From positions 38,624 through 102,623 of the forward strand of contig CAYWPU010000001.1 in assembly GCA_964460805.1 (NCBI GenBank): a stretch of 64,000 nt of DNA. The letters are read 5' to 3'. Position numbers and translations under genes: made by a program. The notes beneath the pieces are model-generated. The model saw nothing but the letters and a program-made list of their open reading frames with translations, searched no databases and was not told the DNA's origin. Below, one piece after another: positions 30,169 through 50,227 of this stretch (positions are counted from its first letter, which is position 1; each line of letters opens with the position of its first letter). Source of the DNA: an uncultured Candidatus Saccharibacteria bacterium (GTDB lineage: Bacteria > Patescibacteriota > Minisyncoccia > Phycocordibacterales > JACOZG01).

Positions 30169-30343
30169 AGCTATTAATTAATTATATTTAATCTAAATTT
30201 ATTATTACTATTAGTGCTGTGAATTAGTCTTGTCTTTATTTCTAGCCCTATTTTGTTATTTAACATTGTGGATTATTTTTGGTAAGTTTTTTAATTCCAA
30301 ATTTATGCTCAAGTTATCCCGTGTTATCCATAGTTTATCCCTG
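30169..30343. promoter_or_regulatory. AT-rich dnaA-dnaN intergenic region with DnaA-box-like 9-mers (oriC candidate)
   Basis: TGTGGATTA at 30267-30275 is the reverse complement of TAATCCACA. TTATCCATA at 30324-30332, TTATCCCGT at 30314-30322, TTATCCCTG at 30335-30343. Strongly AT-rich from 30170 to 30300. Confidence 0.5.
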
Positions 30344-31681: not shown

Positions 31682-31740
31682 GACAGGAATTATATGCTCT
31701 TGCTCTCAACTATCCAACTAGCGCAATCTGTTAATAATCA

Positions 31741-31760
31741 GTGGATTAATGTGGATAAAC
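31741..31760. promoter_or_regulatory. DnaA boxes upstream of dnaA / in rpmH promoter region
   Basis: TGTGGATAA at 31750-31758 is the reverse complement of the perfect consensus TTATCCACA. The adjacent GTGGATTAA at 31741-31749 is a 1-mismatch copy. Confidence 0.55.
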
Positions 31761-31776
31761 ATGCTAGACTCTTGCC

Positions 31777-31911
31777 ATGTCACGAACATACCAACCCAAA
31801 AAGCGCAAACGCAAGACTACTCACGGCTTCCTTGTCCGCAGTGCCTCCAAGGCTGGCAAGCGGGTGATCAAACGCCGCCGGCAGAAGGGTCGCAAGCGCC
31901 TCGCCGTTTAG
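31777..31911 (+). CDS. rpmH: 50S ribosomal protein L34 (not in ORF track because <60 aa)
   Basis: My translation of 31777-31911: [44 protein letters not shown]. Followed by rnpA as in the conserved rpmH-rnpA-yidC arrangement. Confidence 0.85.
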
Positions 31912-31915
31912 CCAG

Positions 31916-32248
31916 ATGCTCCCCCGCGTTAACCGCCTGAGCCGGGCCGAGATTGATGAGATTGTCAGGCGCGGCCGGAGGGCTGGCCGGAGGCCGCTCG
32001 GCTTGCGTTATCTGCTGGTGCCGGGCCCAGCGCGCTTTGCCATAGTAGTGCCAGCTAAAGAGATTAGGCAATCTGTGGCCCGCCATCGTCTCAAGCGCCG
32101 GATCCGTGCCCTAATCCGCGAGCAAGCAGGGCAGTTTAAGCCCAGCCGGAGCTGTCACGCTGTGATCTTTGCTGGTAGCCCAGCCTCTCAGCTCCCTTTC
32201 CCCGATCTGCGCGAGCAATTAACTCAATTATTTAAACAAATCCAATGA
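31916..32248 (+). CDS. rnpA: ribonuclease P protein component
   Basis: MLPRVNRLSRAEIDEIVRRGRR, basic, 110 aa. Sits between rpmH and yidC. Confidence 0.8.
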   Translation: MLPRVNRLSRAEIDEIVRRGRRAGRRPLGLRYLLVPGPARFAIVVPAKEIRQSVARHRLKRRIRALIREQAGQFKPSRSCHAVIFAGSPASQLPFPDLREQLTQLFKQIQ

Positions 32249-32976
32249 TTTCCAGCGCTTTCCGCCACATCTTCTTCCTCCCTCTCTATAATGCCCTCGT
32301 CTGGCTCAGCACAGTGTTGCCTGGGGCCGATATTGGCTTGGCGATCATTATCCTCACTCTGGCTGTCCGCTTTATCCTCTTCCCGCTCCAGCATCGCATG
32401 AGCAAGACCCAGAGGGCGCTCAAGTTGCTTGAGCCCAAGCTGGCTGAGCTTAAGGCTAAATATGCTGATGACAAGAGCGAGCAGGCCAAGAAGCTGATGG
32501 AGCTCTACCGCGAGCATGGGGTCAATCCTTTTGCCGGCTTTGTGCTCCTCCTCATCCAGTTGCCCATTCTCTTAGCTTTGTACTGGGTCTTCCGTGATAG
32601 CTTTGTGATCCAAACCGACTGGCTCTACTCGTTTATCACTCCCCCGGCCGCCTTGGGTACCCACTTCCTCGGCTGGCTGGATATCACCACCAAGAGCTGG
32701 CCTCTAGCCCTGATAGTGGGTATTACCCAGTTCATCCAGATGAAGCTGGTGATGCCTCCCAGCGCCCCTATTGCCCCCGATGCGCCCAAGTCCCTCTCTG
32801 CCGATCTCCAGCGCAGTATGAGCCTGCAGATGCGTTACTTTATGCCTCTGATGGTTACTTTCATTGCCTTTGGCTTGCCAGCTGCTATCCCCCTCTACTG
32901 GATAACCAGCAATATCTTTGCCATTGGCCACGAGCTCTTAGTTAACAGAAAAGCGCGGGACTTAGCTAGTGATTAG
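32245..32976 (+). CDS. yidC: membrane protein insertase YidC (short Oxa1-type form)
   Basis: LAIIILTLAVRFILFPL first TM with conserved Arg, KLAELKAKYADDKSEQAKKLMELYREHGVNPFAG amphipathic region. 243 aa. Confidence 0.85.
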   Translation: MISSAFRHIFFLPLYNALVWLSTVLPGADIGLAIIILTLAVRFILFPLQHRMSKTQRALKLLEPKLAELKAKYADDKSEQAKKLMELYREHGVNPFAGFVLLLIQLPILLALYWVFRDSFVIQTDWLYSFITPPAALGTHFLGWLDITTKSWPLALIVGITQFIQMKLVMPPSAPIAPDAPKSLSADLQRSMSLQMRYFMPLMVTFIAFGLPAAIPLYWITSNIFAIGHELLVNRKARDLASD

Positions 32977-33544: not shown

Positions 33545-34822
33545 CTAGAAGCTGCCACTGATGTCCAACGCCCAGAGTCTCTGGTCGTAGCGGTTATTGA
33601 TGTAGAGGGTCTTTTCCTCAGGGTCTAGCAGGAGCTTGTCGGCATCTAAGTTGATGTCTAGATTGCTGGTGGTGGGGCTAAAGATGATCTCATTCTGGTC
33701 GGTTACAGTATCTATTTTCCAGATATTATCGTTCAGTCTCACTTCTCCTCGGTACCAATCGTCCGGATAGCGGTAGCCGCTTGGCAGTCCGGCTGGCACC
33801 GCGCAATAGGCCGTCAGGCCCGCTCTGGACCACACGCACTTCTCCGTCCAAGTTCTCATGTTTAACCGGCTAAAGAACTTTTTGCTCCTGTCGTAGATGC
33901 CAAAGACCAGACCCTGCTCTCCCAGGCCGCTGTAGAGTACCCGATTGAGGTCGGGATTAACCAGAGTGCTTAAGCCGGGCACGCCAGTGATGACAGGTTC
34001 CAGCTCTTTGGACCTCAAGTCCCACAAGTAGAGCGAGCCATTGGCTAGTTCGGAACTGCGGCTCTGTAGGGCGATCACAGTAGGACTGACCCAGCTGGCT
34101 TGCCACTCTTGGTAAGGTGAGCGGAAGAGGGTTTGTTTGTTGCTACCATCAAGCTGGGCGAGATAAGCAACTGATTGATTGCCGCTCGGCTCTAGCCAGA
34201 AGACTTGGCTATGGTCTGGCGATACGGCCAGAGAGAGGATCTCCGCTGGCCAGGCTCGGGTGGCTAGGGTTGGCAAGTCAGACTCCGGCAGGCTGAGGAA
34301 GTCGTCTCCGGCTAAAGTGGGGCGGATATCCAGGCTGACGGCGATGGTCTGGAGACGGCCCTCGCGCAGGTGGCTGATGATCAGCTCGGTGCTGGTGCCG
34401 CTCTGGCCCGCGGCCAGGCTATAGACTTTTGGGATAGTAGTATTGGAGATGCGCTCGGCGGCGGCTCCTGGCTGGAGGCGGTAGAGATGGCCGGTAATCT
34501 TCTCGGCATAGATGAGAGCGCTGGAGGTGGCTTGGCCCACCAGTGCCAAGCCACCAATTGGCCGGGCTGAGACGCGGTAGAAGCGGCCGGTTGCATCGCT
34601 CACTGTTCCCTCTTCAGCCAACGGACTACTAGAGGCGGTATTGCTGGTAAAAATATCTCCGCCCGGCAGGAGCTCGCCACTCGGGAAGAGCTCGTTGCTC
34701 ACCACCGCTTGATCGCTTGGCACTTCTTCTTGCCCGCGCCACTTGGCCCATGCCAGCGCAATCATGATTATGATGATCAGCGCGCTGCCGGTGAGAATAA
34801 GAGTTTTAGTCTTTTTAGACAT
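33545..34822 (-). CDS. secreted/membrane-anchored protein of T4SS-like operon (N-terminal TM, large extracytoplasmic domain)
   Basis: MSKKTKTLILTGSALIIIIMIALAWA anchor. 425 aa with repeated hydrophobic/W-containing segments compatible with a beta-rich fold. Confidence 0.5.
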   Translation of the reverse strand: MSKKTKTLILTGSALIIIIMIALAWAKWRGQEEVPSDQAVVSNELFPSGELLPGGDIFTSNTASSSPLAEEGTVSDATGRFYRVSARPIGGLALVGQATSSALIYAEKITGHLYRLQPGAAAERISNTTIPKVYSLAAGQSGTSTELIISHLREGRLQTIAVSLDIRPTLAGDDFLSLPESDLPTLATRAWPAEILSLAVSPDHSQVFWLEPSGNQSVAYLAQLDGSNKQTLFRSPYQEWQASWVSPTVIALQSRSSELANGSLYLWDLRSKELEPVITGVPGLSTLVNPDLNRVLYSGLGEQGLVFGIYDRSKKFFSRLNMRTWTEKCVWSRAGLTAYCAVPAGLPSGYRYPDDWYRGEVRLNDNIWKIDTVTDQNEIIFSPTTSNLDINLDADKLLLDPEEKTLYINNRYDQRLWALDISGSF

Positions 34823-34828
34823 TTGTTT

Positions 34829-35203
34829 TTATTGACCCAGATTGCCCAGTGTACCCAGGGTGTTCACAATATCTGGGTTAATCTCGTTTAAGATTACCCA
34901 GGCGACCAGTGCGAGCAATAGACCCCAGAGCGCGCTCTTGATGCGCTCGGTGCCCTCACTCTTGCCGCCCGGCTTCATGCTCAGCACATGCTGCAGTCCG
35001 CCCCAAGTAACCATCACCACCGCCAGAGTGATTGCCACGCCCAGGAAGATGGGAAAGGCCACCTGCACATATTCACCAATAGAGCTGATCTCTGATCCGG
35101 CAGAGCCGGTGCCAGTATTGAGGGGCGCCAGGAGGTTAACTTGGTTCTGGGCCAGAGCCTTTTCTGTAAAAAAATTAAGTAGATTACTTAGCATGTTTTT
35201 CAA
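34829..35203 (-). CDS. VirB2/TrbC-like T4SS pilin candidate
   Basis: 124 aa. N-terminal leader, then two hydrophobic segments (VQVAFPIFLGVAITLAVVMVTWGGL and IKSALWGLLLALVAWVILNEI) separated by a short charged loop, the classic VirB2/TrbC architecture. By topology only. Confidence 0.45.
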   Translation of the reverse strand: MKNMLSNLLNFFTEKALAQNQVNLLAPLNTGTGSAGSEISSIGEYVQVAFPIFLGVAITLAVVMVTWGGLQHVLSMKPGGKSEGTERIKSALWGLLLALVAWVILNEINPDIVNTLGTLGNLGQ

Positions 35204-35931
35204 AAATTAAAGACGCCTGTGTTTCCAAAGTTGATCCGGAACTCGCGCTTGGCTGTCTGGAAGAGATTATTTAAGCTCTCTGTGGTGAGCTTGATGATAC
35301 TCTCACCGCTAATGCCACTGGGCGCGGCAAAGGTAATGAGGCGGTTATCTACTGGCGAGGGCACCACCTTCTGATCGTTCAGCGTCCAACGGTAATCAAT
35401 TTTGCCAGTCTGGACATCTACATTATTAAAGAAATAGGGCTCAGCCGCTAGGTTGATCTCTGGTTGAGTGAGCGTGAGACTGGTGCCCAGAGCGCGGTGG
35501 TAATTGATCCCCAGCAGTGGATCGTCCTCGTAGATGCTGATTACTGGATTGACCACTAGTATCTCCACCAGGCGGTTTGCTGATCCTGTTTTGCCGGGCG
35601 CGGTCACCAGCACTTGGACTTGATGCCTCTCCCTCGCTTGGCCAGCAGTGAAGCTGAGAGTACTCTGGCCAAGGCCCGAGGACTTGGGTACTGCTTGGCC
35701 GTCTCTCTGCCAGCGGTACTCAAGTTGCTCTGGACTCACACCCGGCCAGGCGGCTAGTGCCACCACGCGCACAGTGCTCTGGGGAGTGGCTTGGCTATGA
35801 CCCAAGTAGAAGGCTGGTTTGTACGTGCTAGCGCTCCAGAGCAGATCTACACTGGGAGCGCTCTGAGCCTGGGCGCCGGGCGCGGTGAGTATTAATGTAA
35901 AAAGAGTGAGGAGAGTGGTAAAAAATTTCAT
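35200..35931 (-). CDS. secreted protein of T4SS-like operon
   Basis: Signal peptide MKFFTTLLTLFTLILTAPGAQA. 243 aa, no recognisable motif. Confidence 0.45.
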   Translation of the reverse strand: MKFFTTLLTLFTLILTAPGAQAQSAPSVDLLWSASTYKPAFYLGHSQATPQSTVRVVALAAWPGVSPEQLEYRWQRDGQAVPKSSGLGQSTLSFTAGQARERHQVQVLVTAPGKTGSANRLVEILVVNPVISIYEDDPLLGINYHRALGTSLTLTQPEINLAAEPYFFNNVDVQTGKIDYRWTLNDQKVVPSPVDNRLITFAAPSGISGESIIKLTTESLNNLFQTAKREFRINFGNTGVFNF

Positions 35932-36251
35932 TTTACTAGAGGCAACTTAATACCCAGCTTGTCTTCTGATTTTACCATACCGATGATAACGATTACACCC
36001 ACAGTGACTGACGGTAAGACGCTGAGTATAGGAATGATTTCTACAAGAGCGCTCACGCCGGCTGTGGCCAGGCGCTTGATGGTAAAGGGACTCACTCCCA
36101 ATAGCAGTAACCAAATACCAATCACAATCCATCCCATTGCCCCCGCGCCGGGTATCAACAGACTTAAGAGATCAAAAAACAGAGCCACCACGGGCATGAA
36201 GATGATAGTGGCTAGGCCGATACGGTTTCTCTTTGGTTGTTCTTCACTCAT
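35928..36251 (-). CDS. small polytopic membrane protein of T4SS-like operon
   Basis: 107 aa, 2-3 TM. Overlaps both neighbours by 4-8 nt, suggesting translational coupling. Confidence 0.45.
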   Translation of the reverse strand: MSEEQPKRNRIGLATIIFMPVVALFFDLLSLLIPGAGAMGWIVIGIWLLLLGVSPFTIKRLATAGVSALVEIIPILSVLPSVTVGVIVIIGMVKSEDKLGIKLPLVK

Positions 36252-38073
36252 CTAGAGTTTCTTTGTCGCGCTTGGCTTGCTTGATCGCTAAGATTTGCGA
36301 GGGATCAGAGGTGATGATCTGATCTTCGGTATAAGAGGCGATAATCTTAATAGCCACGTGTTTGAGGCCGGCAAAGAAGATACCCTCGCCCACCCCAGAC
36401 TCTAGCAGGAGATATTTCTCGCCATCGGTGAGCTGGAAGGTTTGCTGGATCAGGTCAATGGCGGCAGGCGACTGCTTTAATAATAACTGGATAGAAGAGT
36501 TAGTGATAATTGGTGTGCCGTATTCTGACTTTAAGAAGTCGCCCACGTCTTGGGTGATAGTAGCCACGCCGAGATAATACTTTCTCCCGCGCTTCACAAG
36601 AGAGAACAAGAACGAGGCTGTATCTTTGCTCTTCATCATCCACCAGGCCTCGTCTATTACCAGCAGGCGCTTCTTCAAGTTGCGCCGGATGGCGTTCCAG
36701 ATATTGTGCATCACGATGTACATCGCCACGGGTTTGAGCTCGTCTTCCATATCGCGGACCGAGAAGACCACAAACTTTTTATTGATATCTACGTTAGTTG
36801 GCTTATTGATAAAACCAGCCCAAGTGCCGCGGGTGTACTTGAGCAATCTCTGTGCTAGCGCTTCCCCGCCGTCCATCCCTACCAGCACTAGTTCTAGATC
36901 AGAGAGGAGTGGCGCCGGTTTATTGGTGAAGTCAGAATCAGCTGTAATATCTTTAAGCGCATAGGTCTCAGTGATTGCGTTGTCCATGATCGCGTCTTCC
37001 TCCGGCGTTAAGCCGCCAAGCATCAGTCTAAACAAGCCAACGAGATTGATGATATTAGAGCGCAAGACGTCAGCCGGTGATTCATCTTCTCTCGGGAATG
37101 GCAGATCAAACGGATTAATGTGGTGCTCGGAGGTGAGTGAGATATTGAAGTAGCGTCCGCCTACGGCCTCTGACAAGAACTCATATTCTCGTTCCGGGTC
37201 TATAACTAAAACATCCGTATCAAACATCAAACTGCGCAGGATTTCTAATTTAGTCGCGTAACTCTTACCAGAACCAGATTTGGCAAAAGTGACAGAGTTA
37301 TAGTTCTCTAAGCTAAAGCGATCAAACAAGATCAGCGAAGAATTATGCCTATTTATTCCATACAAAATTCCCTTATTAGAAGTGAGGTCAAACGAGACGA
37401 ACGGGAAGAGTGAGGAAAGTGGCGAGGAGTTGAGTTTATAATTGATGCCGAGTTGGTCGTCGGCTGTGGGGATCACGCTGCGGAAGCCCTCAGCCTGCTG
37501 GAAGAGGGCTGGCTTGAGATAAACCAACTTAGCGTCCAAGATGCCCTTCACTTCTGTTTCGGTTTTGTTTAACTCATCTTCCGTGTCGCCATAGATGGTG
37601 ATATAGACGCCGACATCAAAGATCTTCTCTCGCGCTTGTTGCAGGCTGTCTCGGAGTGTTTCAATATCAGAATAAGCAGTGTCTAGCACTGGATCGCGGA
37701 CTAAGCCGCGGCTCTCTTTAATACTGATCTGACTCTGCACCTCTGCCACCTTTTTCTCCAATTGCCGGAGGGCGATGGAGGTGTCTATGGGGTGGATGAG
37801 GATAGAAATGTCAAAGACTTTGTCTAGGTTGATGAGCGGCGAGAACCAGTCACCTGATAAGAATCTGGGATAAGAGATTACGTAGAAAGTGCGCGCGACT
37901 TTATCGCCCAGGTTGAGCAGTCTGGGTGTGACGCGGAGTGCCGATGGCGCGAGGATATCGCGCAGGCTCAGGACGCCCATCTGGTAGATATCTTGCGGGA
38001 AGACAGGCGCAACCACTGGTGCTGTTTCTCCCCTTTTCTTCTCTCCCTCTTTAGTTTTACCTAAGCCGAACAT
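36244..38073 (-). CDS. VirB4/TrsE/TraE-family type IV secretion ATPase
   Basis: Walker A FAKSGSGKSYATK and Walker B LLVIDEAWWMM (the VIDEAW motif typical of VirB4/TraC) followed by ATITQD. N-terminal region resembles VirB4 N-domain. 609 aa, compact like Gram-positive VirB4 homologues. Confidence 0.8.
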   Translation of the reverse strand: MFGLGKTKEGEKKRGETAPVVAPVFPQDIYQMGVLSLRDILAPSALRVTPRLLNLGDKVARTFYVISYPRFLSGDWFSPLINLDKVFDISILIHPIDTSIALRQLEKKVAEVQSQISIKESRGLVRDPVLDTAYSDIETLRDSLQQAREKIFDVGVYITIYGDTEDELNKTETEVKGILDAKLVYLKPALFQQAEGFRSVIPTADDQLGINYKLNSSPLSSLFPFVSFDLTSNKGILYGINRHNSSLILFDRFSLENYNSVTFAKSGSGKSYATKLEILRSLMFDTDVLVIDPEREYEFLSEAVGGRYFNISLTSEHHINPFDLPFPREDESPADVLRSNIINLVGLFRLMLGGLTPEEDAIMDNAITETYALKDITADSDFTNKPAPLLSDLELVLVGMDGGEALAQRLLKYTRGTWAGFINKPTNVDINKKFVVFSVRDMEDELKPVAMYIVMHNIWNAIRRNLKKRLLVIDEAWWMMKSKDTASFLFSLVKRGRKYYLGVATITQDVGDFLKSEYGTPIITNSSIQLLLKQSPAAIDLIQQTFQLTDGEKYLLLESGVGEGIFFAGLKHVAIKIIASYTEDQIITSDPSQILAIKQAKRDKETLDE

Positions 38074-38088
38074 GTTTTTAATTTATTT

Positions 38089-38739
38089 CTAATTTAAACT
38101 CGGAATATCGTTCTCGCCCGGGTTAAAAATTTTAAAGTATAACTCCACCAATTCTTCAGTCCCCAACTGTGCCACGCGCAAGCCGATGCGAGAGAAGCCT
38201 TGCTCCACCACTGCCGCGCGCTGCTCTAGCTGAGTGCGGTGTTCTTCAAATTCAGCAGATAGATCGCGTTTGGCGCTCTGGCTACCCAGGCCGGGCAGTT
38301 TAGAGAGCAGTCCGCCCTTGCCCTGTCCGAGTTGGACGGGAGGGCTATACGGGATCACAGCAAAGAAGCTCTTGGCCATGATATCAGTTGATTCTGTGAA
38401 CTTCCTGATGAAGTCAATATATTCTCTGGTCTGAATTTTAAGCAAATCATTAGTTTGGGCGACTAGGCGCTCTTCCAGAGTGTTGAGATACGGCCTGATG
38501 TCTAGTCTCCGTGACTGCACAAAGAGCTGGATGTGGAAGTCTAGCGAGTTTAGGAAGTTCTGGAACTGGAGCAAAATCGCCGTCTGCTCGTCTTCGCCCT
38601 TGAGCGCAAAGTTGACGGACGAGATCATTAGCACCATCCGCAGGGCGCCGTTCTTGAGCACCGCCACACCATCGCGGATCTCCTTGATGGGGAGGAAGTC
38701 TTGCGAGGCTTGGCCATTTGTCTGTGTCGCTGTCGCCAT
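38089..38739 (-). CDS. hypothetical T4SS-associated cytoplasmic protein
   Basis: 216 aa, no TM. Sits between the PrgI/VirB3-like gene and the VirB4-like gene. LPIKEIRDGVAVLKNGALRMVLMISSVNFALKGEDEQ is reminiscent of conjugation-ATPase N-terminal regions, unverified. Confidence 0.45.
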   Translation of the reverse strand: MATATQTNGQASQDFLPIKEIRDGVAVLKNGALRMVLMISSVNFALKGEDEQTAILLQFQNFLNSLDFHIQLFVQSRRLDIRPYLNTLEERLVAQTNDLLKIQTREYIDFIRKFTESTDIMAKSFFAVIPYSPPVQLGQGKGGLLSKLPGLGSQSAKRDLSAEFEEHRTQLEQRAAVVEQGFSRIGLRVAQLGTEELVELYFKIFNPGENDIPSLN

Positions 38740-38758: not shown

Positions 38759-39196
38759 TTATTTGATTTTTTCTCGGATATCCAAGCTCCAAGAGAGATC
38801 TTTTAGTTTGCTCTTCGAGAGTTTGGGCACTGTCAGCGCGCGTGGTTGATCAGCTGGTCTTGTTGCTGTTTGTCCACTATTTGTGCCAGTCCCTGTGCCA
38901 TTTGGATTTGCACCAGAGCGCTTCCAGATATAGAGCTTGTGGGTGGTGGCGTAACGGAAGGCCGCTTCTAGTATCAGGATAAACGAGCGGTTATTCACTT
39001 TATAGAACGCTAGCGCCAGGGCGAGTCCGAGTACGGGGATAATCAAGAGGACAGCCAGCCAGCGGTAAGGCAGGTAGACCCAGAACATGAAGCACGCTCC
39101 CGCCCCACCCACCACGTAGATAAACTGCTTAAAGGTGAGCGGACCAAATATTTTGTCTTCTATTTCAATAAATTGCGGGACTTGGAAGTTGAGCAT
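38759..39196 (-). CDS. PrgI/TcpE/VirB3-like small membrane protein
   Basis: QVPQFIEIEDKIFGPLTFKQFIYVVGGAGACFMFWVYLP followed by a second TM. Matches the PrgI-family pattern (PKDL...DKI.GPLT.RQ..YL) and the VirB3-before-VirB4 order. Confidence 0.55.
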   Translation of the reverse strand: MLNFQVPQFIEIEDKIFGPLTFKQFIYVVGGAGACFMFWVYLPYRWLAVLLIIPVLGLALALAFYKVNNRSFILILEAAFRYATTHKLYIWKRSGANPNGTGTGTNSGQTATRPADQPRALTVPKLSKSKLKDLSWSLDIREKIK

Positions 39197-39201
39197 AATT
39201 T

Positions 39202-39741
39202 TTATTCCAGCCTTTCCCGATAAGGATCCACGTGTGCTGGACGCTCCAGCTCGGCTGGCGTATCCGGCGTACCCATGATCCCCTCTTCTACCGGCTTAAG
39301 GTTCACCGGTTCTGATAATTTCCGTTCCATCACGTTTAGACTTGGCTCTGATGTTTTACCTGTCACAGTAGTAGGACTGTTCATTTCCCTCAGCAAGTCC
39401 TCCGGCGCGGGCGTATTCTGCCGTTCCTCCAGTTGCTTGAGCGATTCCCTGATCTTCATAAAGATTTCTTTGTTCACTTCCATCGCAATCTGCTCCGCCT
39501 CTGCCGCGCTAATACCCAACCGCTCTTGGATATTGGCGGTGAATTTAATAGATGGTTCTAGTCCAAGGATCACATAATCAATCTCGTCTACCAGGCCACC
39601 AACCTGGTCAATATGTAATTGATGAGCGCTACCAATACGCCTGATTACGGCGATAGTTTCGTCCGCGTACATAATTTTCCGGAGCAACTCTGGCGCCTCA
39701 TCGTATTTTTTATCTAGTATTTCTTGAGTGTAATTAGACAT
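39202..39741 (-). CDS. hypothetical soluble protein of T4SS-like operon
   Basis: 179 aa, acidic, no TM, no motif recognised. Confidence 0.4.
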   Translation of the reverse strand: MSNYTQEILDKKYDEAPELLRKIMYADETIAVIRRIGSAHQLHIDQVGGLVDEIDYVILGLEPSIKFTANIQERLGISAAEAEQIAMEVNKEIFMKIRESLKQLEERQNTPAPEDLLREMNSPTTVTGKTSEPSLNVMERKLSEPVNLKPVEEGIMGTPDTPAELERPAHVDPYRERLE

Positions 39742-39743
39742 AA

Positions 39744-42176
39744 TTAATTTCTTCCTTCGTGGTAGTTAATGTTGGCGTTTATGTTTTGAGGGTTAGTGTT
39801 GTTGCTTCTTGGTGATGGCCATTCGTAGCTTCTGTTTGACCCCGTTCCTGAGGGTGTCACGCTGGCCACTGTTGTGGTTTGAGTTGTTGTCGCTCCTACC
39901 GGACTTGCGGTAGCCGCTCCCGCCGCACGTCTCCTGATCTCTTGTAATCGATTGCGCTTGTTTATTTCCCCGGAATTCCGGAGTTGTTCCAGTCTTCCGG
40001 TTCCTAAGTTGCTTGCGATCGTCTGCAGGATGTTTTTGTAATCAGCGTCCTTGTCGTCCAGGTCGTTTACTAGTTTGGCAATTAGGGCCGTTGGTGTTTG
40101 CGCTAATGTTGTGCCCACAGCAGCGCTCTCTCCTCCAAGATTCGAGCGCAGTGTGTCTTCCAACTGACTCATCTTTTGTTCTCTCTGCGCTCTGATCGCT
40201 TCTTTCGTGGCATCGTCTATGTCGTTATCTTTTTCAATCGCCTTGACCTGATTTTCTGAGAAGAGGTGTGCCAGAGTCTTCAGTGTCGTGGCGTCTAACT
40301 TAACCACGTTTTTATCCTTCATCTTCTTGATGGCTTTCTCGGCCTCTGTTTCTTCCTGAGATCCCGGAGTCAGTTTATTGCCGTTGATCTGATTGGCGAT
40401 CTTCTGAGCGGTAGCTTTGGTCTTTTGTTTTTCGTTGTCTTCTTTTTCTTCCTGTGTTTTCTTTTTATCTTTCACCTCGCCCAGTATTTCTACACCAGTA
40501 ATACTAGATACGGCCTTATTAAACGCCTCGTCTGGCTTCTTAAAGGTATCAGCGATTTTCCCTTTAATATTGCCGCCGCTGGATGTAATAACAGATGCTG
40601 CCTTTGTAGCTCCGGCGGCGGCACCCACAAATGGGCTGGTTGCTACCTTCCGTAATCCAACGCCCACATCTCGCACACCCCTCCAGCCACCGCTTTGTAC
40701 CCCCTTGTACACCTCTTTAAATCCTCCGTACGCCGACTTAGCGGTTCCCCCCACTAAACCACCAGTAGCACCCCCAATGGTTTTGAGTGCGAATCGATTA
40801 ATGCCTCCTGCCGCCTTCGTCGCCATCGCCGCTCCCGCTACGCCCAGTTCTTTAGCCACCATCAGCGAGCCAAGCATGAGGCCGTTGGCGATGAGGTAAG
40901 CGAGTAATAGGTTGAAAAACTTATCATTACCCGTATTGATATTACTATTCACCACCTGGGTCACCTTAATGCTCATAAAGATGAAGAGCATGAAGGCGGG
41001 TGCAAATATTAGTTGATTTGAGAGTGCATCTTTCCATTTATTGCTGATCTTGTCTAATGCTTTTGCTCCCACCGCAAAGGCGAGGAAAGCTACGGGAGAG
41101 GCCGCGAGCACAAAGACGAGTATCAATGCTCTGATAAGGAAGAGGATTGCTCCGGCCATGAAGACGGTAGTAGCAATAATAATCAAGATGATCTGCCCCA
41201 CCAGAGAGGCGGCCTGGCTCTTGAGGCGGTTGATATTGGCGTCTGCAGAAGTGAGTGGCATGCGGTCCCTCAGTTGAGCGGCTATCCCCTTGTTCACTGC
41301 GCTATCACTATTTGTGGGGTCTATGGGGCCGGACATCAGCGCTTTCACAATATCTGGACGACCTCCTTCGCCTGCCGCTTGGCCACTTTGTGTTTGACCC
41401 GCTTTGATATACAAACCATTTGCCACCACGTTGCTGGCGTCTATCATTATGCTAGTGAAGAAGAAGCTGAAGTTGACCAGGAGAGCGGCGATTATGACGT
41501 TCTTAAGCAGGTTTTTGCCCTTGACCCCATTAAGCTGGAGTATGGTGCCGATGGCAATGTAGAGCAAAGTGAAGATGAAGGTGAGATTCACCAAGTCGCG
41601 GAAGACTCGCCACGCCTCTCGTAAGCCAACACCCACCTTGTCTCTAAAGTTGCGGACCGAGAAGTCAATACTCAGATCCAGCAGGTAATTAGCCGCTTCC
41701 AAGAGCCATTTCACCACCCAGTGGAAGGCCGTGAGTACACCCACAGCGAACTTCCAGCCGTAACACTCAATATCTAAATATCCGCAAGAGACTGGGCCTT
41801 TCTGGTTCTCCAGTATTTGTCTGTACTCATTATCCGATAGTACACCCTGGTCACCGTGGTTGAGAGTTTGGTTTCCGGTGTCTTGGACTGGCGTACCGCC
41901 GGGTCTGGCAGCTAGCGCCCGATTAATTAGGTTGATGTCTGCTTGGATACTGTTTTGTGTGTCTCCACCGGAGTAGTTGCCACTGTCTCGGTATGCTTGG
42001 AGTTGCCTAACGGCACTCTGTAAGTCTTCTGTGCTAATGCTCCAGCCAGATCCTACAGGATTATTCAGTGCTTCAATCCTGTTCTCATACTGCACGCCGT
42101 TAATTGTAATCGCCCACGCTTGTCCGGCGCTGAGGAGCAGGAGGAGTATTACTAAGATGTGAGCCAGGCGCTTCAT
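39744..42176 (-). CDS. VirB6/TrbL-like polytopic membrane protein with N-terminal secreted domain and long C-terminal hydrophilic extension
   Basis: Signal peptide MKRLAHILVILLLLLSAGQAWA. At least 6 TM helices in the central ~350 aa (e.g. LVGQIILIIIATTVFMAGAILFLIRALILVFVLAASPVAFLAF). C-terminal ~330 aa is lysine/glutamate-rich with coiled-coil character. 810 aa. Confidence 0.55.
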   Translation of the reverse strand: MKRLAHILVILLLLLSAGQAWAITINGVQYENRIEALNNPVGSGWSISTEDLQSAVRQLQAYRDSGNYSGGDTQNSIQADINLINRALAARPGGTPVQDTGNQTLNHGDQGVLSDNEYRQILENQKGPVSCGYLDIECYGWKFAVGVLTAFHWVVKWLLEAANYLLDLSIDFSVRNFRDKVGVGLREAWRVFRDLVNLTFIFTLLYIAIGTILQLNGVKGKNLLKNVIIAALLVNFSFFFTSIMIDASNVVANGLYIKAGQTQSGQAAGEGGRPDIVKALMSGPIDPTNSDSAVNKGIAAQLRDRMPLTSADANINRLKSQAASLVGQIILIIIATTVFMAGAILFLIRALILVFVLAASPVAFLAFAVGAKALDKISNKWKDALSNQLIFAPAFMLFIFMSIKVTQVVNSNINTGNDKFFNLLLAYLIANGLMLGSLMVAKELGVAGAAMATKAAGGINRFALKTIGGATGGLVGGTAKSAYGGFKEVYKGVQSGGWRGVRDVGVGLRKVATSPFVGAAAGATKAASVITSSGGNIKGKIADTFKKPDEAFNKAVSSITGVEILGEVKDKKKTQEEKEDNEKQKTKATAQKIANQINGNKLTPGSQEETEAEKAIKKMKDKNVVKLDATTLKTLAHLFSENQVKAIEKDNDIDDATKEAIRAQREQKMSQLEDTLRSNLGGESAAVGTTLAQTPTALIAKLVNDLDDKDADYKNILQTIASNLGTGRLEQLRNSGEINKRNRLQEIRRRAAGAATASPVGATTTQTTTVASVTPSGTGSNRSYEWPSPRSNNTNPQNINANINYHEGRN

Positions 42177-42201: not shown

Positions 42202-45200
42202 CTAGTTCTGGTTGAGGACAGCGTTGATAATGGCCACGATGATGGCTTGCAGGAGCTCGTTAAACTGACCGGTCTGTAGGGCGCTGGCACCAGGTGTATT
42301 GCTGAGTGCGTTGCGCACCGTGTCTTGGAAGCGCAAACTCCCGCCGTTGCTAAAGTCGGAACGGTAGAAGCCGCCGCTATTGAAGCCGCTGGTTAGCTGA
42401 TTCTCAAACTGGTTGATAGACATGCTGGCTTGGTTAAACAAGTTGCCTACCCCAGTTTCCAGTCCATCAGCCAGACCATTTTCAAAAATTCCTCCAATTG
42501 TCAGGGGCGCATTATTATAGCCATAGAGACTATTGCCGCTGAGCCAGTTATTGCCGTACTGGAAGAGCTGTTCCAGGTACTGATCCTCGCCATAGCCATC
42601 GGTGCTGAGGGCGGCATTAATCGCCAAGGTGCTATAGGCTGTGTCTTTAGCCCTCGCCAGGTCGCCTGGTTCCGTTACCACCCACCAGCCATCACAGATC
42701 TGGTGGCCTTGATAAGTAACTAGTCGTCCTTTACACTCACGTTTGGAGTTGCGGCCGTAGACAGCAAATTCTTTTTCCTCCTGTGCTTGGCGGGCGGCGC
42801 TGGCTCTAGTGGCAGAGTCCCAGATTAATATCTGTGCCTCCAGTGGCAGATCATCGATATAGTTGCCACTATCGCCTCCAGTACCAACGGTGCCATTCGC
42901 AGCCCTGACCAGCTCTTGTTGTATCCTGGTTGTGTTAACGCCGGTAACATTTTGCAAGTGATAGGCCGTGAGCAGGTATCCTTCTCGAGCGGCATCTGCT
43001 AAGTTTTGTTGCAGGTTAGTAGTTACTCCCTGTTCCTCCCCCGTACGGCTGGTGGCTCCAGTTTGGCGGCTGGCGATGCCGTATTCTGCCGCTTTATTGG
43101 TCAGTGTTTGCAGACTATTGCCACGAGCGGTGGGGTTGAGGTGCATCAGCACTCGCTGTGTTGCCCGCGCGGCCCGGGCGTTTTTCTTATTCTGCATGCA
43201 GTCGCGGAAGATTCGGTCTAACTCTATTTGTTGCTGTTTCAGCGCTTCTGTATTCTGTTTATTGTTTGTGGTGCCAAGGCCCTGCAGTTTGGCGTAGCCC
43301 TTTGAGGCTATCTTGGCTTGCGCTTTGCCCGTGTTGGCCACAGTACCGGCAATGCTTGTCCTCGCTGGTATATCCTCCACCCACCAAGCCTCTAGATCTG
43401 ACCCCGGGACCACTCCCAATAGGTGACTGAGAGTGAGCTCTACTACTTGCTCCGCTACCGGGGACAAGAGACCTCCCACATAAGGGATGCCATCTACAAT
43501 GCTGCCAATTCCGCCAGAAATACCACTGACCAGGGCGCCTTGCAAGTCGCCGGCAATCTGGTTGCCTAGATTGCCCAGTCCAGCACCCAGAGTCCCTGTC
43601 TTGCCGGCGGCATTATTGGCGATATTATCGGCTCCGGCACTCACCGATCCAGCAGCATCGGCACCGATGCTATCTGCTGGAGCGATCGGGCCTGGGTACT
43701 CACCCACTGCAATATCGCCCGAACTCACAAATGCATCGTAGCTAGGCAGTGCTGGTGGTCCGGCTACGCCAGGGGCTAGGTCACTGACCTGTCCAGAATT
43801 TAAACCACTCAATGTGCCGCTACTCAGTGGCACGTCGTAGCCGTGACTATTTAACGCAGCCATATAGTTGGCACCGGCCGGACTCAGGTCGGCCGCCAGT
43901 CTAATCGTTTCAATACTCGGCATGCCGCCGCCGTAGCCGATGGTTGCTAGGTTTGTGATCGCCCTGTCGTAGCCAGAGAAGCCCACGCCGGATACCAGCG
44001 CCGTGGCAATGGGTTGGGATAGTTCGTTGGCTAGGGGTTTAAAGTCAAAACCGGCCGCAGCTAGGATGTCATTCCCAGCCCAGTCGTTAAAATTGAAGCC
44101 GCTTCCTCCAGTGCCAGTATTGCTGGCAATTTGATTAAAGTTTAGTCCGTTTAATTGACCCAGGACTCCTCCATTGCCTCCTGGAGCGCCACCCATCACC
44201 ATCTGCATGATCACCGGCAGCATCTGGTCTACCAAGCGATCTATGCCACCGCTCTTACTCACGCCGCGCGCGGCCTCGTTGGCGATGCCATTACCTACTT
44301 GCGAGACCAGCCCAGTTAGGAGTAGCTCCAACTGTTGTTGGAGCAGTTGCATTGACTGCTGGATCTGTTGGGTCATTGTCTGGGCTAAGCTTTGTCCAAC
44401 TTGTTGGAAGGTTGTTGGTTCTCCAGAGAGGGCTCCCTCTAGATGTTGTTGTAGCACCTGCTGGACGACCGGGATAATATTAGCCGGATTAAACTGCTCC
44501 ATTAATTGACTGCCGGGCCCAAAGCTGGCCAGGAGATGCTGTTGGAACATCGCGTCGTTCTGGAGTATGGGAGAGTGCCACTCCGTCTCTGGCAGGCGGT
44601 TGCCGTTCTCGTCCGTTGTCGTCCAGAGCAGCTTCTGGATTTCCAAGTCCATATTATTACGGAGGTTGCCTTGGAGGCCGTTTCTTAGTCCACCGGGCAG
44701 GTCTTGGCGGATGATCTGAGGTAGGATCTGGGCGATTACCTGCCGGAAGTCGTCTGCGCTAGGCTGTCCGCCGGTGCGCCCACTAGAGCGCATGTGCCGA
44801 TCCAGCGCCGAGGGCAACTGGTTCCTGAGGCCGCGCTCTATCACCTGTGGCAACACTTGGCCGATCTGCCGCTGGACCAGGCCCTCCAGGTTGCGGCTGA
44901 CCACTCGGTTGATAGCTTCAGAGAGATTCCGCTGTATCCCACGGCTTATCACATTCTGCAGGCTGGAGGCCAATCCGGCGCCAGCCACTTGTTCTTTACA
45001 CTCGCGCGTGTCTTGGTCAATCTCCTGCCACTCTCGCTGGAGGGCGTCAGCTGTCTGTGCGCTAAAGGCATCAACTCCAAGAGAAGTCTCGTTGGCAAAA
45101 GGTTCTTGAGTCGTATCTATCACTTGCGCCAGCACGAGGTGAGGCAAGAGCAAGCTCAAGGTGAGCAGGCTGGCGGTGATTTTTTTATAATATTCTTGCT

Positions 45201-45207
45201 GTCTCAT
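42202..45207 (-). CDS. giant secreted low-complexity protein (1001 aa; Gly/Gln/Asn/Leu-rich)
   Basis: Signal peptide MRQQEYYKKITASLLTLSLLLPHLVLAQ. Internal degenerate repeats of the form LRNxLP / LPQ[VI]I[ER] (RNLEGLVQRQIGQVLPQVIERGLRNQLP; VIAQILPQIIRQDLPGGLRNGLQGNLRN). Long G/N/S/A-rich tracts, almost no Cys. Overlaps its upstream neighbour by 4 nt. Confidence 0.6.
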   Translation of the reverse strand: MRQQEYYKKITASLLTLSLLLPHLVLAQVIDTTQEPFANETSLGVDAFSAQTADALQREWQEIDQDTRECKEQVAGAGLASSLQNVISRGIQRNLSEAINRVVSRNLEGLVQRQIGQVLPQVIERGLRNQLPSALDRHMRSSGRTGGQPSADDFRQVIAQILPQIIRQDLPGGLRNGLQGNLRNNMDLEIQKLLWTTTDENGNRLPETEWHSPILQNDAMFQQHLLASFGPGSQLMEQFNPANIIPVVQQVLQQHLEGALSGEPTTFQQVGQSLAQTMTQQIQQSMQLLQQQLELLLTGLVSQVGNGIANEAARGVSKSGGIDRLVDQMLPVIMQMVMGGAPGGNGGVLGQLNGLNFNQIASNTGTGGSGFNFNDWAGNDILAAAGFDFKPLANELSQPIATALVSGVGFSGYDRAITNLATIGYGGGMPSIETIRLAADLSPAGANYMAALNSHGYDVPLSSGTLSGLNSGQVSDLAPGVAGPPALPSYDAFVSSGDIAVGEYPGPIAPADSIGADAAGSVSAGADNIANNAAGKTGTLGAGLGNLGNQIAGDLQGALVSGISGGIGSIVDGIPYVGGLLSPVAEQVVELTLSHLLGVVPGSDLEAWWVEDIPARTSIAGTVANTGKAQAKIASKGYAKLQGLGTTNNKQNTEALKQQQIELDRIFRDCMQNKKNARAARATQRVLMHLNPTARGNSLQTLTNKAAEYGIASRQTGATSRTGEEQGVTTNLQQNLADAAREGYLLTAYHLQNVTGVNTTRIQQELVRAANGTVGTGGDSGNYIDDLPLEAQILIWDSATRASAARQAQEEKEFAVYGRNSKRECKGRLVTYQGHQICDGWWVVTEPGDLARAKDTAYSTLAINAALSTDGYGEDQYLEQLFQYGNNWLSGNSLYGYNNAPLTIGGIFENGLADGLETGVGNLFNQASMSINQFENQLTSGFNSGGFYRSDFSNGGSLRFQDTVRNALSNTPGASALQTGQFNELLQAIIVAIINAVLNQN

Positions 45208-49279: not shown

Positions 49280-50227
49280 TTGCTTGGTTCAGCTCTGGTC
49301 GCTATCCCAGCGCTCTTGATTAACCGCCACTCGGCTCTGGCTGGTTCTCTGGGGTCTAATTCCCAGAACATTGGCCTTTCCAGCTCAGCCCCGCTCATTT
49401 TAGCTCTCTCTGGCTCGGATACCGGCGGCGGCGATATCACCATCAGCCGGGATGCGCTCTTGCCAGAGAGCGGCGTGCTCGGCACCTCGGCAGATATTGT
49501 AGAGATACCCCAGAGCGACCAGATCAGCCTCTACGTGGTCCGCGCGGGCGATACGCTCTCGGGCATCGCTGAGATGTACGACGTCTCGGTCAATACCATT
49601 GTGTGGGCTAACGATCTGGCTCGCGGTGCGGCGCTTAGGGAGGGACAGGAGCTCACTATCTTGCCAATCAACGGCTTGCGGCATACGGTGCAGAAGGGTG
49701 AGACACTCGCGAGCATTGCTAAGAAGTTTGGCGGGGACGAGAAGGAGATACTGCAATTTAACGATCTTGGTGCTGAGACTAGACTAGCTGTGGGTCAGGT
49801 GATTATGATCCCTGGCGGTGAGTTGCCGGTGACTAAGACTCCCAGCAAGACGCCGGTCAAGGGCGCGAGCGGTCCCACCTATGCTGGTTACTATATCCGG
49901 CCGATCAATGGTGGAGTGAAGACGCAAGGCTTGCACGGCTATAACGCCGTGGACTTGGCCAGCCGCGTGGGTACACCGGTGCTGGCATCCGCCGCTGGCC
50001 GTGTGATCGTGAGCCGCCAGGGTGGCTGGAACGGTGGTTACGGCAACTACGTGGTAATAGAGCACGGCAACGGCACGCAGACGCTCTATGCTCACCTCAA
50101 CGACACTATTGTGAGCACGGGTACGCGCGTGGAGCAGGGCGAGGTCATTGGCCACTTGGGCAATACCGGCCGCTCTACCGGCCCACACCTCCACTTTGAG
50201 ATCCGTGGTGCCAAGAATCCGTTTTAG
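49280..50227 (+). CDS. LysM-domain M23 family peptidoglycan endopeptidase
   Basis: Two LysM repeats (YVVRAGDTLSGIAEMYDVSVNTIVWAN; HTVQKGETLASIAKKFGGDEKEILQFN). M23 motifs HGYNAVDLA and GHLGNTGRSTGPHLHFEIR. Apparent TTG start at 49280. Confidence 0.8.
   Translation: MLGSALVAIPALLINRHSALAGSLGSNSQNIGLSSSAPLILALSGSDTGGGDITISRDALLPESGVLGTSADIVEIPQSDQISLYVVRAGDTLSGIAEMYDVSVNTIVWANDLARGAALREGQELTILPINGLRHTVQKGETLASIAKKFGGDEKEILQFNDLGAETRLAVGQVIMIPGGELPVTKTPSKTPVKGASGPTYAGYYIRPINGGVKTQGLHGYNAVDLASRVGTPVLASAAGRVIVSRQGGWNGGYGNYVVIEHGNGTQTLYAHLNDTIVSTGTRVEQGEVIGHLGNTGRSTGPHLHFEIRGAKNPF

Follow-up and report, generated by a model that had tools for sequence, protein, structure and literature searches.

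The 810-aa protein encoded at 39744..42176 on the minus strand is, with a probability of roughly 85%, the VirB6-class subunit of a chromosomal, origin-proximal T4SS characteristic of Patescibacteria (CPR). The ORF listing of the 64-kb window, the whole stretch of 64,000 nucleotides that was analysed, revealed a single ATG-to-stop frame of 810 aa plus the stop codon at this location. A word-indexed search retrieved 82 homologues of the protein, while an exhaustive profile search matched its VirB6-like core to approximately 25,600 representative clusters, which together indicate that the ORF is a real gene and bear out the 810-aa protein of the original prediction. An identical protein (P0001) is present on independent metagenome contigs, and the closest homologues were all Parcubacteria/Paceibacteria metagenome proteins. 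Promoter and terminator scans gave signals at chance level only. The protein could be divided into the following parts.

39744..42176, minus strand: complete ORF, extended VirB6-like subunit (ORF listing)
42111..42176, minus strand: Sec-type signal peptide (MKR, hydrophobic run, AWA), residues 1–22 (sequence reading, hydropathy)
41751..42110, minus strand: variable hydrophilic N-domain, residues 23–142, with Cys131/Cys138 at its end (conservation, composition, AlphaFold)
41532..41750, minus strand: two N-proximal hydrophobic helices, residues 143–215, candidate membrane anchors (family hydropathy, AlphaFold)
40848..41531, minus strand: five further hydrophobic helices and a loop, residues 216–443, TrbL/VirB6 homology region
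40542..40847, minus strand: Gly/Ala-rich, net basic segment after the last helix, residues 444–545 (composition windows, pLDDT)
39909..40541, minus strand: mixed-charge helical part of the tail, residues 546–756 (composition, AlphaFold)
39747..39908, minus strand: Ser/Thr/Asn/Pro/Gln-rich disordered C-terminus, residues 757–810 (composition, pLDDT)

The 810-aa query itself gave no direct Pfam or NCBIfam match. A PDB comparison of the full-length family profile was dominated by weak matches to coiled coils, all brought in by the tail, and the alignment was therefore trimmed to the core (profile A2). Among 177,635 PDB sequences, the sole match of the A2 profile was TrwI, the VirB6 of R388 (E=1.2e-6). 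For R349, P361, and W381, whose conservation in the family is complete or reaches at least 90%, the aligned TrwI residues in this match were K, P, and W. In Agrobacterium VirB6, this Trp is functionally essential. Pfam TrbL matches could be detected in 14 of the 45 aligned homologues, and the scores of P0045 (33.5 bits), P0067 (36.8 bits), P0076 (29.3 bits), and P0133 (42.5 bits) stood above the gathering score of 25.9. Homologues above this score were matched by the query at E values between 2.6e-24 and 2.5e-7; P0133, which also exceeds the score, matches the core profile at 2.1e-90. Precomputed PF19590 (TrbL_3) and PF04610 matches were also borne by homologues; the profile match that places the protein in VirB6/TrbL (PF04610; PF19590) is thus obtained via the family and not via the query alone. 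The predicted core fold resembled the solved VirB6-class structures DotA and TrwI, with a Foldseek match that was by itself not significant. Overall, both the sequence and the fold of the hydrophobic core demonstrated homology to TrwI/VirB6 and DotA.

The lack of a direct Pfam or NCBIfam match for the query would also fit a polytopic transporter or permease of unrelated origin that carries a charged tail and resembles VirB6 in composition only. This identity was rejected as extremely improbable, as TrwI alone was retrieved by the PDB profile search, homologues passed the curated TrbL threshold, the motif residues lined up with TrwI, and the T4SS neighbourhood of the gene is conserved. No transporter family appeared at any threshold used in the Pfam, NCBIfam, and PDB profile searches. 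The VirB6/TrbL-like core that had been proposed was therefore retained, on four independent lines: the profile match to the PDB, the TrbL-passing homologues, the fold match to DotA/TrwI, and the gene neighbourhood.

The gene neighbourhood consisted of the following genes.

42202..45207, minus strand: 1001-aa secreted protein, family unknown, immediately upstream of the VirB6-like gene (no family match)
39202..39741, minus strand: 179-aa acidic soluble protein, family unknown, between the VirB6-like gene and prgI
38759..39196, minus strand: 145-aa membrane protein, PrgI/VirB3-like (Pfam PrgI, above the curated cutoff at E=4.3e-9)
38089..38739, minus strand: TrsD/TraC-like protein, 216 aa (NCBIfam TrsD, E=1.7e-5; precomputed PF26593 TraC-like)
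36244..38073, minus strand: VirB4-type ATPase, 609 aa (NCBIfam conju_CD1110, E=2.1e-105, above the cutoff)
34829..35203, minus strand: VirB2-like T4SS pilin, 124 aa (Pfam T4SS_pilin PF18895, E=7e-7, above the cutoff)

The genes for PrgI, the TrsD-like protein, the CD1110-type VirB4, and the T4SS pilin form one minus-strand string, in which PrgI and VirB4 are the second and fourth genes downstream of the VirB6-like gene on the same strand. The 609-aa ATPase also matched Pfam P-loop_TraG and AAA_10, and the 216-aa protein matched the N-terminal parts of VirB4 models. The linkage of the VirB6-like gene to virB4 and virB3 was kept in distant loci. Comparison of the 1001-aa and 179-aa neighbours revealed no family match, and phmmer against the PDB returned nothing useful. 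The positions of both are nevertheless conserved in the Vogelbacteria loci L006 and L007, where they are held by a gene of 1065–1070 aa and a gene of 154 aa, respectively, and the 1001-aa secreted protein is a conserved partner gene.

One side of the cluster is flanked by dnaA, dnaN, rnpA, and yidC and the other side by ksgA and uvrD. The dnaA gene lies at 30335–31681 with rnpA and yidC beside it, and dnaA and dnaN are approximately 8–10 kb away. A tyrosine recombinase gene occurs at 55795–56673. Neither a relaxase nor a coupling protein (T4CP) could be found among the larger ORFs of the 64-kb window, and no VirB8/9/10 homologues were recognised in the cluster. The string from uvrD/ksgA to yidC/rnpA was syntenic in the Vogelbacteria loci, in which the VirB6-like protein is only 28% identical; the same flanks at such low identity indicate vertical inheritance of the cluster.

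Alternatively, the cluster could be part of a mobile conjugative element (ICE), in which case the protein would serve as VirB6 in DNA transfer and not in a host-interaction T4SS. The proximity of the VirB4 to the CD1110 conjugation family, a gene order like that of pCF10, and the recombinase gene speak in its favour. However, the larger ORFs yielded no relaxase or coupling protein, the flanks are shared with the Vogelbacteria loci, and the recombinase lies 13 kb away and has a size typical for XerC/D. ICE membership was accordingly rejected as highly unlikely, on the relaxase and coupling protein result and the conserved chromosomal flanks.

The assignment to the Patescibacterial T4SS agrees with the published description of this system, reported between 2023 and 2025 (Quinonero-Coronel et al. 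2025, PMC12102498). Both share a clustered gene set of VirB4, TrsD, PrgI/VirB3, VirB6, and a VirB2-like pilin, a chromosomal setting near dnaA/rnpA/ksgA, and no relaxase found. As a difference from the VirB6 homologues of that study, the 810-aa protein scores too low for a direct assignment by Pfam or NCBIfam, and the available text of the paper gives no domain layout for those homologues. The paper cites Wang et al. 2023 for essentiality in Southlakia epibionticum ML1, and epibiotic growth is described as dependent on the system in the only species tested (cited in PMC12102498 and PMC12857230).

The N-terminal residues 1–22, MKRLAHILVILLLLLSAGQAWA, are followed by IT and display the n-h-c layout of a signal peptide when read from the sequence. 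A hydrophobic peak could be observed at residues 7–25 and A-W-A at positions -3 to -1, in agreement with the cleavable signal peptide of the original prediction; the cleavage itself we infer from this layout. A hydrophobic N-terminus was also present in 186 of 203 family members. The residues that follow (23–142, approximately 120 aa) are hydrophilic, weakly conserved, and net acidic ahead of the first helix, and they probably form an extracytoplasmic N-domain, close to the 130 aa or so that had been proposed. The length of this domain ranged from 37 to 223 aa among the 45 aligned homologues, with a family median of 79 aa. AlphaFold predicted short helices within it (pLDDT 50–83), and the domain is closed by the C131/C138 pair, whose Cys columns are kept in approximately 28–30 of the 45 homologues.

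Hydropathy analysis of the core revealed seven hydrophobic helices at residues 143–165, 195–215, 226–246, 325–347, 351–371, 386–408, and 421–443, a pattern conserved across the 45 homologues and in line with the at least six transmembrane helices claimed previously. The third of these (226–246) bears the invariant N235-F236-S237, and a hydrophilic loop of 78 aa (247–324) separates the third from the fourth. Most of residues 140–445 were predicted by AlphaFold with pLDDT values of approximately 90 or higher, including the helices 136–175 and 177–212. Predicted core helices were 36–49 residues long each, much longer than one bilayer crossing. By analogy, the helices within residues 143–215 are candidates for the true membrane anchors and may be equivalent to alpha1/alpha2 of TrwI and TMI/TMII of DotA.

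The remaining 367 aa (residues 444–810) form a hydrophilic tail of three zones. The first, residues 444–545, is Gly/Ala-rich and basic, with pLDDT values below 50 for residues 462–541; across the family, the first 40 aa after the core contain a mean of 4.4 K+R versus 0.6 D+E. The second zone (approximately 546–756) is helical and of mixed charge, with low conservation beyond the closest relatives and AlphaFold helices at 569–598, 655–693, and 713–756 (pLDDT 60–89). The third, residues 757–810, is Ser/Thr/Asn/Pro/Gln-rich and disordered (pLDDT below 50). The whole tail consisted of 10% K, 6% E, 10% G, and 13% A and contained no Cys. At these K and E contents it is only moderately Lys/Glu-rich, and of the Lys/Glu-rich tail of approximately 330 aa suggested before, the long hydrophilic tail was recovered but the length and the degree of enrichment were not. 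The KK..E.KE repeats attributed to it could not be found, as the motif occurs exactly once (residue 572) and self-BLAST detected no internal repeats. Similarly, a coiled-coil character did not emerge from a crude heptad a/d test on residues 541–760, in which 16% of shuffles scored as high and the signal was not significant, although long helices are predicted there. No tail domains were found in relatives with very long tails (920–1382 aa).

Tails of at least 150 aa were present in 96% of the 203 family members examined, and an N-terminal extension, a core, and a long hydrophilic tail are the family norm. Contrary to what had been thought, the architecture is therefore not unusual, since essentially every family member examined has the same layout, which also fits the published category of extended VirB6 proteins (PMC12857230). 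Such proteins are defined by hydrophobic helices together with at least one large hydrophilic domain in a central or C-proximal position (Alvarez-Martinez & Christie 2009, cited in PMC12857230). The 120-aa N-domain, the 78-aa central loop, and the 367-aa C-terminal tail conform to this definition, and the likeness to extended VirB6 proteins drawn earlier was upheld by the layout. As extensions of this kind, the tail and the variable N-domain are hydrophilic and specific to the lineage.

Comparison with known VirB6-class proteins demonstrated both shared and divergent traits. TrwI (R388; PDB 7O3V, 8RT9) shares with the 810-aa protein a basic residue, a Pro, and a Trp aligned across the hairpin region and the arrangement of two N-proximal helices ahead of the other hydrophobic ones (PMC9259494). 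In contrast, TrwI is 342 aa long with no signal peptide domain, 120-aa N-domain, or long tail, and its machine is a diderm one that also comprises VirB5, 7, 8, 9, and 10, none of which could be recognised in the present cluster. DotA of the Legionella Dot/Icm system (PDB 9NGY) has the same blueprint of a signal peptide, two transmembrane helices, and five hydrophobic helices, and likewise an added hydrophilic domain (PMC12501162). The extra domain of DotA is a large insertion between hydrophobic helices, whereas the main additions of the 810-aa protein are N- and C-terminal and its central loop has only 78 aa, and no sequence-level match to DotA was seen.

TcpH (pCW3), Orf15 (Tn916), and the Rickettsiales extended VirB6 proteins are of similar size (700–900 aa) and also combine a polytopic VirB6-like part with large, poorly structured hydrophilic regions (PMC12857230). 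PrgH (pCF10, MPF_FATA) is encoded in the same VirB6-VirB3-VirB4 order (prgH-prgI-prgJ) and, like the present cluster, is accompanied by a VirB2-like pilin, but at 266 aa it has neither N-domain nor tail. Single-sequence templates limited the power of hhalign comparisons between the core profile and these proteins: the match to PrgH was marginal (E=7.6e-4, probability 25%) and fell on the same C-terminal helices that match TrwI, that to Orf15 was also marginal (E=1e-3, probability 21%, 55 columns), and no significant relationship to the MPF_FA protein TcpH was obtained (E=0.049, probability 1%). The VirB4 that accompanies the 810-aa protein is of the CD1110/FATA-like type, unlike that of the MPF_FA elements of TcpH and Orf15. 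Taken with the weak TcpH and Orf15 matches, this suggests that the hydrophilic extension may have arisen independently of the MPF_FA extended VirB6 proteins.

The location of the tail was assessed from the helix pattern and charge distribution, and a cytoplasmic and an extracytoplasmic tail appeared about equally likely. Seven hydrophobic helices, an N-terminus outside, and the basic segment after the helices predict a cytoplasmic tail. In such a topology, whose chances we place just short of even, all seven helices would be membrane-spanning, from an external N-terminus to a cytoplasmic C-terminus, and the tail would serve as an arm for docking to VirB4/TrsD or to the acidic 179-aa neighbour; substrate recruitment in place of the missing coupling protein would be a further potential role. 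The odd number of helices after an exported N-domain, the K+R excess past the last helix compared with the net acidic segment before the first, the Cys-free tail, and the lack of a coupling protein among the larger ORFs of the window are consistent with this placement. A positive-inside count likewise gave a preference for the cytoplasm, short of a decision. Reporter fusions by Jakubowski et al. in 2004 reportedly located the C-terminus of Agrobacterium VirB6 in the cytoplasm, which was counted for this placement. Against it stand the length of the predicted core helices, far beyond a bilayer crossing, and the short loops placed outside, which still bear K/R, including the invariant R349. Moreover, the solved R388 and Dot/Icm machines keep only two N-proximal helices in the membrane (PMC9259494, PMC12501162), and the remaining hydrophobic helices of their VirB6-class subunits form an extracytoplasmic pentamer (PMC9259494, PMC12857230, PMC12501162).

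If only two helices are in the membrane, as in these solved homologues, the tail would be outside. Anchoring by residues 143–165 and 195–215 alone, as in TrwI and DotA, with the tail and the remainder of the core exposed, is a tentative alternative somewhat below even odds, in which the tail would form part of a stalk through the wall or of a tether for host contact where VirB8/9/10 are lacking. The very long core helices predicted by AlphaFold, the absence of recognised VirB8/9/10 homologues from the cluster, and the Ser/Thr/Pro/Asn-rich end, which is like surface linkers by resemblance only, point in this direction. The positive-inside pattern opposes it, and a charged tail of 367 aa would need to pass through the membrane once the hydrophobic helices are in place. 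In addition, no wall-binding or adhesin domain was found in the tail or in the much longer tails of relatives, and the heptad signal for a rigid coiled-coil stalk was not significant.

On the model of R388, Dot/Icm, and PrgH-PrgF, the 810-aa protein would be exported via its signal peptide and anchored in the membrane by the two N-proximal helices. It may then assemble into an oligomer, probably a pentamer, whose five further hydrophobic helices would build a platform or protochannel at the centre, above the motor of VirB4, VirB3, and TrsD. At this platform, the pilin would be recruited and polymerised into a conduit contacting the host cell, in keeping with the described role of VirB6 as the pilus platform (PMC9259494).

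The Patescibacterial T4SS matters because it is essential in the only species tested, and VirB6 is regarded as the platform at the centre of such machines. The 810-aa protein is a clean, typical example of a very large family and introduces no new principle; it allows sub-threshold hypothetical proteins beside virB4 in Paceibacteria to be assigned to VirB6 with confidence, and it indicates that the extended VirB6 layout is the rule in the Patescibacterial lineage and not an oddity. Reviews assign no known role to the hydrophilic extensions of extended VirB6 proteins. An idea we regard as rather unlikely is that the near-universal C-terminal tail may take over the job of other subunits, spanning the envelope or contacting the host in a machine without VirB8/9/10 if exposed, or acting as a substrate-recruiting arm in a machine without a coupling protein if cytoplasmic, perhaps with the conserved acidic 179-aa neighbour as its partner. 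If true, the tail would be a lineage-specific solution bearing on the exchange of material between CPR epibionts and their hosts.

The gene encoding the VirB6-like protein consisted of a single ORF of 810 amino acids (AA) on the minus strand, running from an ATG at 42176 to a stop codon at 39744–39746. A word-indexed search revealed 82 homologues, which mark the gene as real, and an identical protein with the same neighbours was present on independent metagenome contigs. Among the 82, the homologues with a named source all came from Parcubacteria/Paceibacteria-type CPR (Nomurabacteria, Vogelbacteria, Moranbacteria, and Paceibacterota). The N-terminus, MKRLAHILVILLLLLSAGQAWA followed by IT, displayed the charged segment, hydrophobic segment, and A-x-A motif of a Sec signal peptide when read from the sequence and its hydropathy, in agreement with the signal peptide originally proposed. 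Residues 23–142 were hydrophilic and net acidic, ending in a cysteine pair (C131/C138) kept in approximately two-thirds of 45 aligned homologues. Seven hydrophobic helices followed (143–165, 195–215, 226–246, 325–347, 351–371, 386–408, and 421–443 AA), with a 78-AA hydrophilic loop between helices 3 and 4. An AlphaFold2 run using a 45-sequence alignment gave pLDDT values mostly of about 90 or above for residues 140–445; the core helices were 36–49 residues each, except for a short one (360–369), when the kinked 220–260 helix was counted as one.

The protein itself received no direct match in Pfam or NCBIfam; nevertheless, four independent lines (Pfam via the homologues, PDB profile, fold, and gene context) identify the core as VirB6/TrbL, as had been predicted. 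Pfam TrbL was matched individually by 14 of 45 homologues, the homologues P0045, P0067, P0076, and P0133 scored above its curated threshold, and several carried precomputed TrbL_3 or TrbL assignments. When a profile of the alignment trimmed to the hydrophobic core was compared against 177,635 distinct PDB sequences, the sole match was TrwI, the VirB6 of R388 (E = 1.2e-6). The near-invariant R349, P361, and W381 of the family aligned with K, P, and W of TrwI. Homology of the core to VirB6 was shown in both sequence and fold, and placement in an unrelated transporter family was looked for in Pfam, NCBIfam, and the PDB profile search and not found. The protein is a previously unannotated VirB6 that joins a known, very large family, and it belongs to an already published system.

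Gene neighbours of the VirB6-like protein, in transcription order
Before the 1001-AA gene, minus strand: 232-AA protein, first of the neighbour string
42202–45207, minus strand: 1001-AA secreted protein, directly upstream of the VirB6-like gene with a 25-nt gap
39202–39741, minus strand: acidic protein of 179 AA lacking hydrophobic segments, after the VirB6-like gene and before prgI
After the 179-AA gene, minus strand: PrgI/VirB3 (Pfam, E = 4.3e-9)
38089–38739, minus strand: TrsD/TraC-like protein, 216 AA, matching TrsD and N-terminal parts of VirB4 models
36244–38073, minus strand: VirB4, 609 AA (NCBIfam CD1110 family, E = 2e-105)
35928–36251, minus strand: small, very hydrophobic 107-AA membrane protein, its first 8 nt shared with the end of virB4
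35200–35931, minus strand: 243-AA secreted protein with a signal-like N-terminus, after the 107-AA gene
Between the 243-AA and 425-AA genes, minus strand: VirB2-like T4SS pilin (PF18895)
33545–34822, minus strand: 425-AA secreted protein with a signal-like N-terminus, last of the string

The partnership with VirB3, VirB4, TrsD, and pilin genes was conserved, and the VirB6-VirB3-VirB4 order is that of prgH-prgI-prgJ in pCF10. The 609-AA VirB4 aligned only from approximately model position 185 onwards, and together with the 216-AA gene it looks like a split VirB4 corresponding to the TrsD and VirB4 pair, which has been described as typical of Patescibacteria. The 179-AA protein had no family match and is possibly a cytoplasmic accessory factor; the likewise unmatched 107-AA protein could be a second VirB2/PrgF-like or a VirB3-like component. 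The 1001-AA protein, the largest of the cluster, began with a signal-like segment and ended in a hydrophobic helix, with Gln-rich helices and a Gly-rich middle in between; it had no match in Pfam, NCBIfam, or PDB. In two Vogelbacteria loci, L006 and L007, its position was occupied by a 1065–1070-AA gene and that of the 179-AA gene by a 154-AA gene. The 425-AA and 243-AA proteins had no family matches either; the corresponding Vogelbacteria stretch included a Hedgehog-N-terminal-like (PF01085) protein, a domain not seen here. Plus-strand ORFs of 100–160 AA at 39275–39577, 40417–40899, and 41274–41624 overlapped minus-strand genes and look like shadow ORFs rather than genes themselves.

On one side the cluster was bordered by yidC, rnpA, dnaA, and dnaN, while DUF192, ksgA, and uvrD lay at its opposite edge. 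As dnaN, dnaA, rnpA, and yidC (29062–32976) lie directly beside it, the cluster adjoins the probable replication origin, a location reported for many Patescibacteria. An integrative conjugative element was considered and rejected, since the same uvrD/ksgA-to-yidC/rnpA string occurred in Vogelbacteria loci where the VirB6-like protein was only 28% identical; the cluster is therefore an ancient, vertically inherited chromosomal locus. Neither a relaxase nor a coupling protein turned up in the ORFs of the window that were scanned. The remaining genes of the window were housekeeping (PolA, PBP, RuvB, Fpg, Mur ligase, alanine racemase, CCA-adding enzyme, PilB, and PilM). This arrangement is the one published for Patescibacteria (PMC12102498), a study that gives a set of VirB4, TrsD, PrgI/VirB3, VirB6, and VirB2-like pilins, places it often near dnaA/rnpA/ksgA, especially in Paceibacteria, reports relaxases as nearly absent, and counts 480 VirB6 homologues, of which 304 lie close to virB4. 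In Southlakia epibionticum, T4SS genes including virB6 are essential for epibiotic growth (cited in PMC12102498 and PMC12857230). Approximately 3 kb past the cluster, a LysM-LysM-Peptidase_M23 protein (49280–50227, plus strand) may be the VirB1-like enzyme that remodels the wall for the T4SS; the published survey notes VirB1 homologues carrying M23/LysM domains (PMC12102498). The window also held type IV pilus genes on the plus strand, namely a PilB-type ATPase (T2SSE) carrying an MshEN domain (20797–22491) and PilM (3807–4877); besides the T4SS, the type IV pilus is the second surface machine that has been linked to CPR epibiosis.

In R388, VirB6 is a pentamer with only alpha1 and alpha2 in the membrane, while its remaining hydrophobic helices form the stalk base proposed to recruit and assemble VirB2 pilin (PMC9259494). 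DotA, the VirB6-class protein of Dot/Icm, combines a signal peptide with two TM helices and five hydrophobic ones, carries a hydrophilic domain as an insertion, and assembles into a pentameric protochannel (PMC12501162); for pCF10, a PrgH pentamer topped by the PrgF pilus was modelled with mutagenesis support (bioRxiv 10.64898/2025.12.18.695078). The present protein has the count of DotA, a signal peptide with two N-proximal and five further hydrophobic helices, and its predicted helix lengths are easier to reconcile with a protruding bundle than with a flat seven-TM protein. Because of these solved relatives, the same helix count, and the long helices, it would be best explained, by analogy, as an oligomer above the VirB4/PrgI/TrsD motor, serving as the platform or protochannel where the neighbouring pilin polymerises. 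For the C-terminal tail, two locations are about equally probable. Classical topology reasoning would place it in the cytoplasm, given the exported N-terminus, the seven hydrophobic helices, and an average of 4.4 K+R vs 0.6 D+E across the family in the 40 AA past the last helix. Following the TrwI/DotA blueprint, it would lie outside the membrane, since only two helices stay in the membrane there (PMC9259494, PMC12501162). No domain fusion deciding the side could be found in long-tailed relatives.

The 367-AA tail could be divided into a Gly/Ala-rich basic zone (444–545), a mixed-charge helical zone (approximately 546–756), and a Ser/Thr/Asn/Pro-rich end (757–810). The original description of the tail was borne out only in part. 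Neither the KK..E.KE repeats nor the coiled-coil character held up: the motif occurred once, self-BLAST revealed no internal repeats, and 16% of shuffles equalled the crude a/d heptad score. Tail conservation was low beyond the closest relatives.

The architecture was not unusual, contrary to the original prediction. Searched exhaustively, the core profile matched 25,614 representative clusters at a cutoff of E ≤ 1e-3; tightening the cutoff to E ≤ 1e-30 left 12,829. Among 203 family members examined, the median length was 703 AA, the median N-extension 79 AA, and the median C-tail 272 AA; 96% had tails of at least 150 AA and 186 of 203 a hydrophobic N-terminus. The median charged fraction of tails was 34%, and 4 of 201 contained a hydrophobic 19-mer. 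The present protein, whose N-extension spans 139 AA and whose tail measures approximately 340–365 AA depending on the core end chosen, is long-sided within the family, yet typical. The 'extended VirB6' is already defined by at least five hydrophobic helices and central or C-proximal hydrophilic domains, with 700–900-AA forms carrying unstructured regions in Gram-positive MPF_FA systems (PMC12857230). Profile comparisons of the core revealed no specific relationship to TcpH or Orf15, the extended VirB6 proteins of pCW3 and Tn916, so the present extension may have arisen separately. The role of such extensions is stated to be unknown (PMC12857230), and what remains notable is that a near-universal, unexplained tail marks the VirB6 proteins of this lineage.
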